DNA of 64,000 nucleotides from Rickettsiaceae bacterium (GCA_021323225.1 JAJTCH010000002.1:76425-140424), one strand, 5' to 3'; shown: positions 40,406 to 46,493, counted from the stretch's first letter. The notes: a model not told the origin generated them from the letters alone. Made by a program: numbers and translations.

Positions 40406-41743
40406 TCATAAAGACAATAAGCCGTTATCACCTACCACTCCTAATGCCGCCGGAGCCCCCACTACTGGCGCCGGCACATCTCTCCGTCTTTGCATCACTT
40501 TCTTTGCATAAACACAACAACATGCCACCAGAGCTAAACCGGCAATCCCCGCACCAACAGCAATACCCGCAACCGCACCTTTTGACAAGTCGGACTCATC
40601 CTCAATACCAGTATTATTAGTAGGGGCTTTGGTTGGAGAATTAGTTGGAGCAGGTGTAGGACTAGAATTTACTATGGAAACAGTATCGTTATGGGATTCA
40701 AACGAAGAATGATCGTTAATAGTGAAAGTATTGCCACTTTTTGTACAATCAATAACGGGAACATCACCTGTGTTCTTACCAGCATTGGCTGCCCGATAAA
40801 TAGCCTCTATAGTATCTTTATCTATAGCTCTTAGCGTTTTATTGCCAAAATGAAATTCATTGTCTTCTATAGTAACATTCATGCCATTCGCATCTTCAAA
40901 AACAGAACAGCGTGAACCATTAACCACTAGCGTTATCGGTTGTGTCAGATCAATATCTGGCAAAGGTTCAAACCTAAAGTTTCCATCTTGATTTTGAGGA
41001 AATTTTGCAGCAGTTATTTTTTCATTTTCTGTGATTTCCACCTCAAGAAGACCATCAACTATTTCAATTGTTGGGCTGCCATTATCAACCAGCTGAGGAT
41101 CAAAAATTTTACTAAGCGGCAATGCTAAATAAGATTCGCTGTCAATATTAATTGGTAGAGATGTTGCATTCCGATCCTTATCAATTCTCAAAATCTGCAC
41201 AATCTTATTAACCACAACACCGTCAGTGCCAATGCTAGCATAAAGAACAGCAATATGACCGGGGCTAATCAGTTTATAACCAATCACTGTTTGTTCATTT
41301 TTAATAATGGAATTTGGAACCAATATTTGTGTTGATTGATGTGTATTTAAATCTGTAATTTCTAAATAAATATTGCTGCTTTGTGTCGGTTGATCAGAAG
41401 GAATTCTGTTGAAAAATCTGTAAGATACATCATTACTTCCATCTATTATTGGATCAGTTTGTATTGGGCCCCTCCTTTCCGATATTTCATGAATTTCTCC
41501 AAATGAAAATTCTCTTCCATCCGGTAATTCAGATGAAGAATATGTTTCAAGAGAAAATTCTAACCCCTTTTCCTTCCTTATCTCTTCCACTAAAGAGGTC
41601 AAATTATGTTCTTGGATATCTATTATATCATCTCCTTGAACAAAATTTTGTCCTTGCTCGTAAGTAACTCTCTTCTCGGTTGAAGAAGCAATAGCAGCCA
41701 TGGCCAAAAGTTTAAAAATTGTTCTTAACGGATTATTTGGCAT
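40406..41743 (-). CDS. Family B paralog B1 (445 aa): signal peptide + conserved ectodomain + Cys-containing domain + short Pro/Thr linker + single C-terminal TM with CCC cluster; unknown function
   Basis: N-terminal hydrophobic leader. Conserved block RRGPIQTDPIIDGSNDVSYRFFNRIPSDQPTQSSNIYLEITDLNTHQSTQ. Stalk SPTPAPTNSPTKAPTNN. TM AVAGIAVGAGIAGLALVACCCVYA followed by KKVMQRRRD (positive-inside). Confidence 0.85.
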   Translation of the reverse strand: MPNNPLRTIFKLLAMAAIASSTEKRVTYEQGQNFVQGDDIIDIQEHNLTSLVEEIRKEKGLEFSLETYSSSELPDGREFSFGEIHEISERRGPIQTDPIIDGSNDVSYRFFNRIPSDQPTQSSNIYLEITDLNTHQSTQILVPNSIIKNEQTVIGYKLISPGHIAVLYASIGTDGVVVNKIVQILRIDKDRNATSLPINIDSESYLALPLSKIFDPQLVDNGSPTIEIVDGLLEVEITENEKITAAKFPQNQDGNFRFEPLPDIDLTQPITLVVNGSRCSVFEDANGMNVTIEDNEFHFGNKTLRAIDKDTIEAIYRAANAGKNTGDVPVIDCTKSGNTFTINDHSSFESHNDTVSIVNSSPTPAPTNSPTKAPTNNTGIEDESDLSKGAVAGIAVGAGIAGLALVACCCVYAKKVMQRRRDVPAPVVGAPAALGVVGDNGLLSL

Positions 41744-41847
41744 AGCTTTAGATATTGTAATTAATTATAGAAGTCCGCTCAATAAGTGGCTATTCAGCAC
41801 AATCATTCGGTTTTCCGACATTGACAAGAAACCACAAAAAGGGGTTT

Positions 41848-41876
41848 AACCCATTCAAGTGTTTCCTGAATGGGTT
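41848..41876 (-). terminator. hairpin terminator downstream of B2
   Basis: Perfect 10-bp stem aacccattca / tgaatgggtt with a 9-nt loop, starting 10 nt after the B2 stop. On the minus strand a T-run follows within a few nt. Confidence 0.55.
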
Positions 41877-41885
41877 AAAAAAGTG

Positions 41886-43832: not shown

Positions 43833-43868
43833 AAAAAATCCGCCCAAACTTTTGAATGTTTGGACGGA
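43833..43868 (-). terminator. Rho-independent terminator downstream of B3
   Basis: On the minus strand tccgtccaaac-attcaaaa-gtttgggcgga (11-bp stem, one G-U pair) is followed by tttttt. It lies 28 nt after the B3 stop. Confidence 0.75.
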
Positions 43869-43895
43869 TTTAATGTATTTTGAAAAAACCTTAAA

Positions 43896-46493
43896 CTATG
43901 CAGCAACAGAAACACCCTTCTGATGCACAGCCAAAGGAGTAATATCCGTAATTTTTATAATATTTGAAGGAAGTTGTCTTGCTTTCTCAGCAGCACCGTC
44001 GAGTGCCGCAGGAACAGTTCTGTTATTAACGGTGCAGCCTCGAGAAGCATGAACACCTGCAATAGCAGAAACATAAGGTTTTCCGTGAGCATTATATGCA
44101 TTCATAGAAGCTACATAAGCAGAAACAATAGCAGGTAAAGCATGCGCATGAGGAACGGGACCAAGTGCGGCTACCGCTACAGGACCAGTAAAATTCCCGT
44201 TAGCTAGAATGTGAACAACGAGTTCACCGTTACTGAGAGCAGCGCCTACTGGACCAATAGCCGCAATACGAACGCCATTACCTATATTTGCAGCATGGTT
44301 GATATTAACGGTAAGACCAGTAGTAATAGCCGCAGCTGCGGCTGATGCTGTCGCGGTGGCAGAAGGGAGATCACGAGCTGCCACTAAAACTGTATTTGCT
44401 GCGTCTGCAGCTGCGTCTGCAGCTAAACCGACAAGTACAGGTTCTTTATAAAAAAAAGCCATATTAGCCATAGTAGTGTTATACACAACTTCATAAAGAT
44501 CTTTAAGATTAGGATTGGCAGCATATGTTCTAGCGGCACGATCAGCAGCAGAGTTAGCAATACTCTTAGCAAAAAGATCTTGAGCTATATCCTTATCTTT
44601 TTTCTCCTTGCAACACCAACAACAAATGGCACCCATAATTACAAGACCCATTCCAATAACAGCGCCCGCCACAACACCTCCCCACTCACTATCAGATAGG
44701 CCTGCTTCATTACCCAATGCTTTAATAGGAGTTGTTGGAGATCCGGTTGGAGAAGGAGTTGGAGAATGAGTTGAAAATTCGTAACCTGTAGAATTAACCA
44801 CACAAGTTCCTTCATCATTTTCTGTTGCATTAAGCTCAATCTCATAGGTGCCAGCAGAGGTATCAATATCTATACCCTTTTCTGTACAGTTAGCAGATCT
44901 AATATTACCAGAAATTTTAGGAAGAGAATTTTGATCAATCGCAACTACATTATTATTGTCAAAAATAACATATTGAATTTGGTTGCCGTCTTTAACTCCA
45001 ACCATGGTCATATTTCCACAACCAAAAATGGAACAATGCATGCCATTGACTGTAATATTAGCTATGTGCACCGGCGCTTGAGTTGGCTCTATTGTTGGCA
45101 CCGAAGTTGGCTCTTGCGTCGGGTTATTTGATGGAGATGGAGTCAACATAAGCACCGGACTTGCCGTTGGATTAAATGTTGGACTTAGAATTACAGGAGA
45201 AAGTGTAATCGGAGCCTCCGAGAAAGGTGATCTAGTTGGAAATGATGACGGAGCATCCACTGGCGACTTAGACTCCGGGCTATTTGTTGGGTTGGATACA
45301 GGACTTGGCGAAGGAGCGTTAGACGCTGGATTAGCAGATGGACTAAAAGTTGGCGTCCAAGTTGGTTGGCCTGTTACCGGATTAGTTGTCGGAGTCCACA
45401 TTGGAGTGCCAGTTCCAGGGGCATCAGTTGGCAAGGTTGAGCGAGGAGTTGGCACTCTTGTCGCCGGAGATGGCGTTGCAGATATTGGTGGAGCAGTTGG
45501 TACTATCGTTGGCGATTTAGATTCTTCCGGACTGTTTGTTGCCGGATTTGATGTAGGATTCTGCGACGAAGGCGCGGCAGAAGTAGCAACTGGGGACTCG
45601 GTTGATGGATTTAAAGTTGACGGAGCAGCAGATGCGGTTGATGGATTTAAAGTTGACGGAGCAGCAGATGTCGGGTTAGCAGTTGTCGGAATGTTAGTTG
45701 TTGGATTTGAAGTAGTTGGACTGCCAACTGGACTTGGGGTTGGAGCTTGCTGCGACGGACTTAGAACTGGTGCTGCCGTTGGAGCAGCAGCCAATACAGG
45801 ATCAACACGGAAAGTTCCATTATGATTATTCTCAAGTATAATACTTTTTCCCGCAAGATTGATAGCCACATCGCCACCGTTATTCACCGTAACAACAGCA
45901 ATATTGCTGCTATTGATAGCGTCAACGCTTGACGGAGGAGTAAAAATATCGGTCAACAATAACGGGGTAACTGTCTGATTATTATTAATTACAATTGGCA
46001 AATTTGTAACTTTAGTGCCATTAAGGCTTAATGCCTGAATTGCCTGGTTAAGCGTTACGGAGCCAGCAAGATTTGTTAAATACTGAACAATGACTTGACC
46101 CTGACTAGAATCAACCACCTCCATAGTAACAGGTATTTGCGATCCTGTAGAACGGGCACCAGGAATCCTAACAAGCTCAAAAGCTCCACCAGGACTAGTA
46201 ACATTCAGAGCCACATCTGGACCTGATATGGAGTTAGCAAAATTTGTTACTCCAACAAATTTATAGCCAAAACCATTCATTGATATTTCTTGCAAACCGC
46301 GCCTTCCTGCTTGCTGACTCCTTACTTCTCGAACAGATTCCGCCAATCTGTCAAATGGATCATTTGGTTGTTGCGACATGATATCGACATCGGAAACTTT
46401 AGACCCTCCCAAAACTTTAAGGGGGCTTGTAACAAGTATTGCCCAAACAGCAAAGACCCTATTAAAAAAGGATGTTCCGGTTTCTGGTTTCAT
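43896..46493 (-). CDS. Family B paralog B3 (865 aa): ~240-aa mucin-like Pro/Thr/Ser linker, TM with CCWCC cluster, 237-aa Ala-rich cytoplasmic tail; unknown function
   Basis: Leader MKPETGTSFFNRVFAVWAILVTSPLKVLGG. Ectodomain more distantly related to B1/B2 (RRGLQE..., QAIQALSLNGTKVTNLPIVINNNQ). Linker at aa 235-476. Domain 2 is ITVNGMHCSIFGC...NCTEKG. TM VVAGAVIGMGLVIMGAICCWCC followed by KEKKDKD. Confidence 0.85.
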   Translation of the reverse strand: MKPETGTSFFNRVFAVWAILVTSPLKVLGGSKVSDVDIMSQQPNDPFDRLAESVREVRSQQAGRRGLQEISMNGFGYKFVGVTNFANSISGPDVALNVTSPGGAFELVRIPGARSTGSQIPVTMEVVDSSQGQVIVQYLTNLAGSVTLNQAIQALSLNGTKVTNLPIVINNNQTVTPLLLTDIFTPPSSVDAINSSNIAVVTVNNGGDVAINLAGKSIILENNHNGTFRVDPVLAAAPTAAPVLSPSQQAPTPSPVGSPTTSNPTTNIPTTANPTSAAPSTLNPSTASAAPSTLNPSTESPVATSAAPSSQNPTSNPATNSPEESKSPTIVPTAPPISATPSPATRVPTPRSTLPTDAPGTGTPMWTPTTNPVTGQPTWTPTFSPSANPASNAPSPSPVSNPTNSPESKSPVDAPSSFPTRSPFSEAPITLSPVILSPTFNPTASPVLMLTPSPSNNPTQEPTSVPTIEPTQAPVHIANITVNGMHCSIFGCGNMTMVGVKDGNQIQYVIFDNNNVVAIDQNSLPKISGNIRSANCTEKGIDIDTSAGTYEIELNATENDEGTCVVNSTGYEFSTHSPTPSPTGSPTTPIKALGNEAGLSDSEWGGVVAGAVIGMGLVIMGAICCWCCKEKKDKDIAQDLFAKSIANSAADRAARTYAANPNLKDLYEVVYNTTMANMAFFYKEPVLVGLAADAAADAANTVLVAARDLPSATATASAAAAAITTGLTVNINHAANIGNGVRIAAIGPVGAALSNGELVVHILANGNFTGPVAVAALGPVPHAHALPAIVSAYVASMNAYNAHGKPYVSAIAGVHASRGCTVNNRTVPAALDGAAEKARQLPSNIIKITDITPLAVHQKGVSVAA
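45601..45672. repeat. 2 x 36-bp tandem repeat inside the B3 linker
   Basis: gttgatggatttaaagttgacggagcagcagatgcg (45601-45636) is repeated at 45637-45672 with 34/36 identity. It encodes AAPSTLNPSTAS / AAPSTLNPSTES on the minus strand. Confidence 0.9.

Follow-up and report, generated by a model that had tools for sequence, protein, structure and literature searches.

Three tandem orphan genes of a Rickettsiaceae bacterium encode a candidate family of exported, single-pass envelope proteins

Within a 64,000-nucleotide stretch of the metagenome-assembled genome (MAG) of a Rickettsiaceae bacterium (GCA_021323225.1 JAJTCH010000002.1:76425-140424, hereafter the window), three genes that we call B1, B2 and B3 are arranged head-to-tail on the minus strand and encode proteins of a common design. 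The three are true paralogs under purifying selection and, as judged from sequence searches, form an orphan family with no apparent relatives among about 15 billion known proteins. With moderate confidence, we read them as a lineage-specific bacterial envelope family whose members would be exported through Sec, anchored in the inner membrane with the N-terminus outside and the C-terminus inside (N-out/C-in), and furnished with binding or tethering modules that are carried on spacers of variable length at the host interface. A preliminary description, made from the DNA alone, had singled out the same three open reading frames (ORFs), and its coordinates and lengths (445, 561 and 865 amino acids) are reproduced here (Table 1).

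Shared layout of three tandem paralogs

B1 and B2 are collinear along their full length (BLASTP E = 8e-65), are 67% identical across a 109-residue ungapped block of the N-terminal domain (N-domain), and have in common an identical 17-residue stretch, QPTQSSNIYLEITDLNT. B3 matches B2 in the N-domain (E = 1e-10) and B1 in the two-Cys domain and transmembrane (TM) helix (E = 3e-13), and all three pairs still match when low-complexity masking is on. The purifying selection acting on the genes is seen in the ratio of nonsynonymous to synonymous substitution rates in the B1/B2 N-domain (dN/dS = 0.27, dS = 0.66). In the annotation, all three products are hypothetical proteins, and at 90% identity each forms a cluster of its own.

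Both a 420-kb JGI metagenome contig and an independent Logan assembly carry the locus. The Logan contig starts within B3 and agrees with the window across the portion present; the sole differences are found on the JGI contig and consist of a 171-nt indel in the B3 stalk DNA and one single-gap difference elsewhere. Inspection of the indel, which corresponds to 57 amino acids, places it between two near-identical AAPSTLNPST(E/A)S units, an arrangement that indicates either a true length polymorphism or the collapse of a repeat.

The three proteins follow one order. First come a hydrophobic leader (approximately residues 6-25), an acidic region ending in Arg-Arg-Gly (RRG), a beta-rich N-domain of ~175 residues and a spacer rich in Pro, Thr, Ser and Ala (PTSA); these are followed by a Cys-pair domain of ~90 residues, a Pro/Thr (PT) stalk of ~30 residues, one TM helix, juxtamembrane Cys residues, a Lys/Arg cluster and a tail. 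The layout set out in the preliminary description, which ran from a leader through a beta domain, a two-Cys domain, a PT stalk and a single TM helix to juxtamembrane Cys and a basic stop-transfer segment, is thus recovered in B1-B3. Each protein has one strong hydrophobic segment (residues 393-411 in B1, 474-492 in B2 and 607-625 in B3), with a 19-residue Kyte-Doolittle mean of 2.32-2.46, and this helix is rich in small residues. The 15 residues that precede it hold a single Lys or Arg in every case, as compared to five, four and five in the 15 residues that follow it in B1, B2 and B3, respectively; by the positive-inside rule, this charge asymmetry suggests an N-out/C-in topology, which in turn would require an N-terminal leader. 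From the leader sequences, we infer cleavage and export by the Sec pathway. None of the leaders contains a Cys, and a lipoprotein assignment was rejected for this reason.

Among the exported segments, the Cys-pair domain maintains a conserved spacing of 49-54 residues between its two cysteines across B1-B3, with B3 possessing two extra cysteines at positions 492 and 564. The PTSA spacer, by comparison, ranges from ~10 residues in B1 and ~60 in B2 to ~240 in B3 (~300 in the JGI assembly), a divergence of about 30-fold among paralogs, and its length may still be varying. The tails, of 33, 67 and 237 residues in B1, B2 and B3, have no significant mutual similarity and no shared motif. Where the acidic N-terminal region, which is poorly conserved, gives way to the beta-domain, an invariant RRG is preceded by E-[IV]; this element could be a dibasic processing site, or could be merely structural. 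An interpretation of RRG as a twin-arginine translocation signal was rejected because the motif is found 60-105 residues into the protein and is not followed by a hydrophobic region.

Examination of the cytoplasmic end of the TM helix reveals the sequences ACCCVY in B1, HRKC (one Cys) in B2 and ICCWCC in B3. As a background, we took 1,680 predicted TM ends from 1,458 alphaproteobacterial ORFs in fetched loci and counted Cys within a 12-residue window at the boundary: at least two were present at 13 of the 1,680 ends (under 1%) and at least three at only one, whereas two of the three B proteins have at least three. The Cys cluster remains the sole element of the layout that is atypical of bacteria; PT-rich linkers and positive-inside anchors are ordinary bacterial features too.

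AlphaFold2 models of the family rest on only three sequences. The two B domains modeled together gave a poor prediction (predicted local distance difference test score, pLDDT, 47), whereas the core of the N-domain (B1 residues 89-206) was predicted as an all-beta fold with a pLDDT of 76.5 and a predicted template-modeling score of 0.70. In this model, eight strands form two four-stranded antiparallel meanders. The core resembles two blades of a beta-propeller, with TM-scores on the query of 0.45-0.56 and E-values of 0.03 or worse that are not significant, and Foldseek searches of PDB and BFVD returned no significant fold match to the B proteins.

Table 1. Positions of the B genes, their protein segments and other features of the window. 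Nucleotide positions count from the first letter of the window; protein segments are given as residues.
Feature	Position	Strand	Details
B1 (MCE3255284.1, K0R25_778)	40406..41743	-	445 aa, intact ORF
B2 (MCE3255285.1, K0R25_779)	41886..43571	-	561 aa, intact ORF
B3 (MCE3255286.1, K0R25_780)	43896..46493	-	865 aa, intact ORF; 922 aa in JGI assembly
B1 leader	residues ~1-22
B1 acidic pro-region	up to RRG, residues 91-93
B1 N beta-domain	residues ~89-262
B1 two-Cys domain	residues ~268-355		C279, C333
B1 PT stalk	residues 359-385
B1 TM helix	residues 389-412		end ACCCVY
B1 basic tail	residues 413-445
B2 leader	residues ~1-20
B2 RRG	residues 104-106
B2 N beta-domain	residues ~103-275
B2 PT/SQAP spacer	residues 276-334
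B2 two-Cys domain	residues 335-432		C349, C402
B2 stalk	residues 433-465
B2 TM helix	residues 471-494		followed by HRKC (C498)
B2 tail	through residue 561
B3 leader	residues ~1-29
B3 RRG	residues 63-65
B3 N beta-domain	residues ~55-232
B3 PTSA spacer	residues 233-470
B3 Cys domain	residues 471-578		C487, C492, C536, C564
B3 stalk	residues 579-603
B3 TM helix	residues 604-628		end ICCWCC
B3 tail	residues 629-865		Ala-rich, orphan
B3 PTSA-spacer DNA	45085..45798	-	site of 171-nt (57-aa) inter-assembly length difference
B3 spacer length difference, second location listed	L001 5938-6106
Perfect tandem repeat, 36 nt x2, in B3 spacer DNA	45599-45670	-
Intrinsic-terminator-like hairpin (B3)	43836..43871	-	14-bp stem, T-run, 25 nt past B3 stop codon
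Intrinsic-terminator-like hairpin (B2)	41845..41879	-	15-bp stem, T-rich tail, directly past B2 stop codon
Sigma-70-like promoter match	41764..41792	-	TAGCCA-17-TATAAT, upstream of B1; consensus match only
Second orphan family, four tandem paralogs	33619..40236	-	653, 340, 641 and 358 aa; Lys/Glu/Ser-rich; immediately downstream of B1
85-aa acidic ORF	46632-46889	-	139 nt upstream of B3; gene in JGI annotation; no family match
Autotransporter	47309..49555	+	PF03797 beta-domain, E = 1e-40; divergent from B cluster; bounds orphan island
DsbD	23316-25181		15 kb from B genes
VirB2/TrbC pilin-like ORF	29550-30053	+	PF04956, E = 3.5e-9
Ankyrin-repeat protein	7530-9572	-	680 aa
Phytochelatin-synthase-like ORF	56510-57373	-	PF05023, E = 3e-37
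ORF	665-1264	+	199 aa
ORF	1345-2943	-	532 aa

Membrane topology, localization and the host interface

The features described above can be assembled into a working model of a bacterial envelope protein. Each B gene is apparently its own transcription unit. The N-terminal leader would direct the chain through Sec until the C-terminal hydrophobic helix halts translocation, with acidic residues left outside and the Lys/Arg cluster inside, to yield a single-pass N-out/C-in protein of the bacterial inner membrane. On the exported side, a membrane-proximal module of ~90 residues, probably stabilized by a disulfide, would stand on the PT stalk, and a distal all-beta module of ~175 residues would be borne by the flexible PTSA spacer. 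An oxidizing compartment fits the presence of a Cys pair of conserved spacing in the exported part, together with that of DsbD in the window, and the small-residue (GxxxG-type) face of the TM helix suggests that the proteins may oligomerize. The proteins would serve as binding or tethering modules in the periplasm or envelope at the host interface, and would have been diversified by tandem duplication. Inner-membrane residence, the disulfide, oligomerization and the binding function are all properties that we infer.

The genomic setting bears on where such proteins might act. B1-B3 lie in a 15-kb island that is composed solely of lineage-specific genes (the B genes, the four members of a second orphan family and an 85-residue ORF), with an autotransporter gene at its boundary; the combination suggests a role at the host interface.

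Several observations weigh against residence in the bacterial inner membrane as the whole explanation. Bacterial TM helices rarely end on their cytoplasmic side in clusters of three to four Cys, and an inner-membrane model assigns such clusters no role. The B genes sit among genes that are probably host-directed, namely the second orphan family, the autotransporter and, further off, an ankyrin-repeat protein. The leaders are only moderately hydrophobic, their best 10-residue Kyte-Doolittle values being 2.08-2.57 as compared to 2.77 for the neighboring autotransporter, and no bacterial homolog or fold match favors any particular envelope function. A spacer of 240-300 residues would, moreover, exceed the width of the periplasm when fully extended.

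One unlikely alternative holds that the B proteins, perhaps by way of an inner-membrane intermediate, end up in a host membrane as type I proteins, with their tails in the host cytosol and their juxtamembrane cysteines S-palmitoylated by host DHHC enzymes. In eukaryotic membranes, a Cys cluster placed where a TM helix meets a basic segment is a standard context for S-acylation, and S-palmitoylation of bacterial effectors by the host is documented (PMC5780409); acylation of the B cluster would need the tail to be exposed to the host cytosol. A type IV secretion system (T4SS) could be considered as a route, since genes for a VirB2-like pilin and an ankyrin-repeat protein lie in the window, and since about 30% of candidate T4SS effectors of Rickettsia are predicted to have TM domains and 31% signal peptides (PMC12981334). 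Nearly all of the TM-bearing candidates are single-span, and most are hydrophobic enough for prior insertion into the inner membrane (PMC12981334). Against this route, the single-span Rickettsia candidates are mostly N-in/C-out, opposite to the B proteins, and periplasmic parts are shorter than 30 residues in ~80% of multipass TM effectors (PMC12981334). Large periplasmic domains are reported to hinder the T4SS extraction of inner-membrane intermediates, and in Legionella translocation was impeded by larger periplasmic domains (PMC12981334, citing PMC11602083). In each B protein, 360-600 residues, likely bearing a disulfide, would be periplasmic, which makes extraction by a T4SS unlikely, and the unrelated tails offer no shared C-terminal signal. 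In general, no known route would place the ectodomain of a protein arriving from the host cytosol in a host lumen.

A second alternative, also unlikely, is that the B proteins are adhesins or lectins that are displayed on the surface or shed, the ectodomain being cleaved off at a site such as RRG or the stalk and binding a host ligand, with the spacer extending its reach. The great variation of spacer length among paralogs, and the difference of one 57-residue unit between assemblies, recall variable surface antigens, and comparable repeat indels occur in the tandem orphan genes ssa1-3 of Neorickettsia (PMC3127766). An adjoining autotransporter gene, the resemblance of the N-core to two propeller blades and the identity of QPTQSSNIYLEITDLNT in B1 and B2 would likewise suit an adhesin. 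On the other side, the fold matches do not reach significance, no sorting-signal hidden Markov model (HMM) matches the proteins, and no Gram-negative pathway is known, in general, to take an inner-membrane protein with a helix anchor across the outer membrane.

More broadly, we regard it as improbable that the family acts as type I proteins in a eukaryotic membrane with a conserved Cys cluster S-acylated by the host, or represents an ancient capture of a protist glycoprotein that mimics a host receptor. Were the Cys cluster nonetheless to be acylated by the host, or the ectodomain to reach it, Rickettsiales would be deploying a complete eukaryotic design for type I membrane proteins, and it would have to be asked anew how large exported domains get out of a Gram-negative cell. 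Either delivery to a host membrane or capture from a protist, if true, would give Rickettsiales a new class of membrane effectors that mimic the host.

Orphan status and origin of the family

A search with HMMER of a stalk-free family profile (A2) against 1.84 billion cluster representatives found only B1-B3, along with two weak matches to highly repetitive proteins. One of these (P0004) has an E-value of 6.6e-6 summed over seven repeats, and was rejected: its 80-residue two-Cys repeat is superficially like the B domain, but hhalign assigns a probability of only 1.8%. The other (P0005) matches at E = 2e-4. Scans of B1-B3 and their neighbors against Pfam and NCBIfam gave no B family and no sorting-signal model at E <= 0.1, and a scan of B1-B3 against PHROGs gave nothing above noise; a match of phrog_15511 (E = 4.6e-4) to B3 residues 414-719, which runs from the stalk through the Cys domain and TM helix into the tail, belongs to a family of no known function and was disregarded. 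The only hit in a sequence-profile search of PDB was VirK at a noise-level E = 0.25. Word-indexed searches with B1, profile A2 and the B3 tail either retrieved B1 alone or had no hit, leaving the B3 tail with no homolog, and scans of genome, metagenome and viral contig collections with A2 detected no related locus. Named surface antigens of Rickettsiales, such as Orientia TSA56, were likewise absent from the Pfam and NCBIfam matches at E <= 0.1, and the profile search found no other protein. Loci anchored on LipA in 80 genomes, the closest of which are freshwater Rickettsiales MAGs with 78-80% LipA identity, showed no synteny, no B homolog (hmmsearch --max) and no similar architecture. The authors of the preliminary description had recognized no family, and the proteins are orphans in every search that we ran; clear homology to a bacterial periplasmic or envelope family was found in none of them.

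The gene signals and composition of the locus bear on where the family came from. Strong hairpins resembling intrinsic (rho-independent) terminators lie past the stop codons of B2 and B3, a sigma-70-like promoter match precedes B1, and the leader ATCTAAAG stands directly before the ATG of both B1 and B2. Just upstream of the B2 start, a 25-nt direct repeat is present in two copies (43597-43646), is absent from the regions preceding B1 and B3, and may be a regulatory site. The G+C content at third codon positions (GC3) of B1-B3, 0.25-0.27, falls within the range for housekeeping genes of the window (mean 0.34, range 0.225-0.42). The raised G+C content of B3 is limited to codon positions 1 and 2 within the stalk, and results from the amino-acid composition of that segment. 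The likelihood of synonymous codons in the B genes is about 1.3-3 standard deviations under the housekeeping mean, and is similarly low in the neighboring orphan family. Neither the composition nor the gene signals give any sign that the genes came recently from a eukaryote; a transfer from an unsampled protist, if ancient and by now fully ameliorated, is still conceivable.

It has also been proposed, in the preliminary description, that the architecture is that of a eukaryote-like glycoprotein with frequent N-x-S/T sequons. Comparison of the ectodomains with shuffled sequences gave 9 sequons against 4.6 expected in B1 (p = 0.03, uncorrected and borderline), 4 against 4.8 in B2 and 10 against 10.7 in B3, such that sequons are not enriched beyond composition in B2 and B3. 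The layout and the unusual Cys cluster bear out the architectural part of the proposal; its glycoprotein part is not supported. A further suggestion, that the genes were acquired from a eukaryotic host, is at odds with the lack of any homolog among the 1.84 billion representatives, the native GC3 and the bacterial type of the gene signals, and the profile and fold searches that were recommended as a check for eukaryotic affinities yielded neither a eukaryotic or viral homolog nor a significant fold match.

In its fullest form, the capture scenario would have the B genes taken from a eukaryotic host or giant virus, with the donor's type I glycoprotein layout kept and the genes duplicated later in the bacterium. 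The succession of leader, acidic pro-region ending in dibasic RRG, PTSA stalk, single TM helix, poly-Cys segment and basic tail is what such a history would leave, and the borderline sequon excess in B1 agrees with it. Opposed to these are the want of a homolog of any origin in the protein, viral, metagenome and genome collections, the lack of a BFVD or PDB fold match, GC3 and codon use like those of the genome's own genes, the bacterial-type terminators and promoter-like site, and the absence of sequon enrichment in two of the three proteins; we judge capture to be very improbable. That B1-B3 are non-functional, as chance ORFs, decaying pseudogenes or an assembly artefact, can be practically dismissed: they are known only as hypothetical singletons from a single MAG population and the B3 stalk varies between assemblies, but the three long ORFs are intact, collinear in architecture and constrained in sequence, three independent assemblies agree outside the stalk repeat and one single-gap difference, and terminators sit exactly past the stop codons of B2 and B3.

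Genomic surroundings and comparison with known systems

That the contig belongs to a Gram-negative bacterium is unmistakable: encoded in the window are dnaN, recF, mutS, clpB, gyrA, parA/parB, lpxC, dsbD, secB, a VirB2/TrbC-like pilin, an ankyrin-repeat protein and an autotransporter. The pilin-like ORF and the ankyrin protein are consistent with a T4SS-bearing, host-associated lifestyle. Members of the second orphan family match one another (pairwise BLASTP E-values as low as 5e-29), and have no Pfam or NCBIfam match; its 653-residue gene is 543 residues long in the JGI assembly, where it lies beside a 99-residue ORF on the opposite strand. The signal peptide of the autotransporter is a classical one, and its passenger, rich in Asn and Thr, matches no family. 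To our knowledge, a phytochelatin-synthase-like domain such as that in the window has not been noted previously in Rickettsiales. The ORFs at 665-1264 and 1345-2943 have no Pfam match at E <= 1e-5 and, by BLASTP, are unlike both island families. Around ~43000-48000, the divergent region between B3 and the autotransporter, gene orientation shifts from mostly minus to mostly plus and the GC skew changes sign; the cumulative skew minimum lies at ~44-45 kb, with dnaN/recF to one side (27-29 kb) and parAB/gyrA to the other (54-61 kb). The window shows no enrichment of DnaA boxes (19 versus 17.6 expected), and neither does the skew switch.

If the plain reading of B1-B3 as envelope proteins is true, they add another lineage-specific envelope family of an uncultured endosymbiont, whose main use would be as a marker and to illustrate tandem diversification with a spacer of variable length. 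A three-member orphan family without relatives among ~15 billion proteins also offers a test case for de novo or fast-evolving symbiont genes.

Comparison with known systems shows resemblances of design. Eukaryotic and viral type I glycoproteins with palmitoylated juxtamembrane Cys, such as viral spikes (PMC5780409), share with the B proteins a leader-like N-terminus, a Cys-pair ectodomain, a Pro/Thr/Ser stalk, a TM helix, a Cys cluster and a basic stop-transfer segment. In contrast to these glycoproteins, the B genes are part of a bacterial chromosome, have terminators of bacterial type and native codon use, show no sequence or fold homology, lack sequon enrichment in two of the three products, and have no known route into a eukaryotic secretory pathway. 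Transmembrane effectors of T4SSs (PMC12981334, PMC11602083) resemble the B proteins in having a single, strongly hydrophobic TM span and in belonging to intracellular bacteria that bear T4SS genes; they differ in that their periplasmic parts are short and their orientation mostly N-in, whereas the B proteins have exported domains of 360-600 residues and no shared C-terminal signal. The ssa1-ssa3 genes of Neorickettsia (PMC3127766) are, like B1-B3, three tandem orphan genes restricted to one lineage, with internal repeats that undergo whole-unit indels; their products have no sequence similarity to the B proteins, Ssa3 has no predicted signal peptide, and descriptions of the Ssa proteins mention no type I TM/Cys architecture.

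Proteins with C-terminal sorting signals (LPXTG, PEP-CTERM, GlyGly-CTERM, MYXO-CTERM and the PGF-CTERM S-layer glycoproteins of archaea) have a comparable Thr/Pro-rich linker, TM helix and basic cluster. Unlike them, the B proteins have no motif before the helix and match no NCBIfam or Pfam sorting model at E <= 0.1, and the 33-237 residues that extend past the helix mean that their anchors are not at the extreme C-terminus. Nor are they autotransporters, the PF03797 domain matching only the neighbor at 47309-49555 and not B1-B3. Listeria ActA-type proteins, also from an intracellular bacterium, have a signal peptide, a Pro-rich extended region, a C-terminal helix and a basic stop-transfer segment, but they are non-homologous, come from a Gram-positive organism with no outer membrane to cross, and possess neither a Cys cluster nor a two-Cys domain. 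The closest systems are analogs by design only, not by descent: the B family itself is an orphan, while its general kind is a familiar one, that of exported proteins which evolve fast and are duplicated in tandem in an obligate intracellular bacterium.

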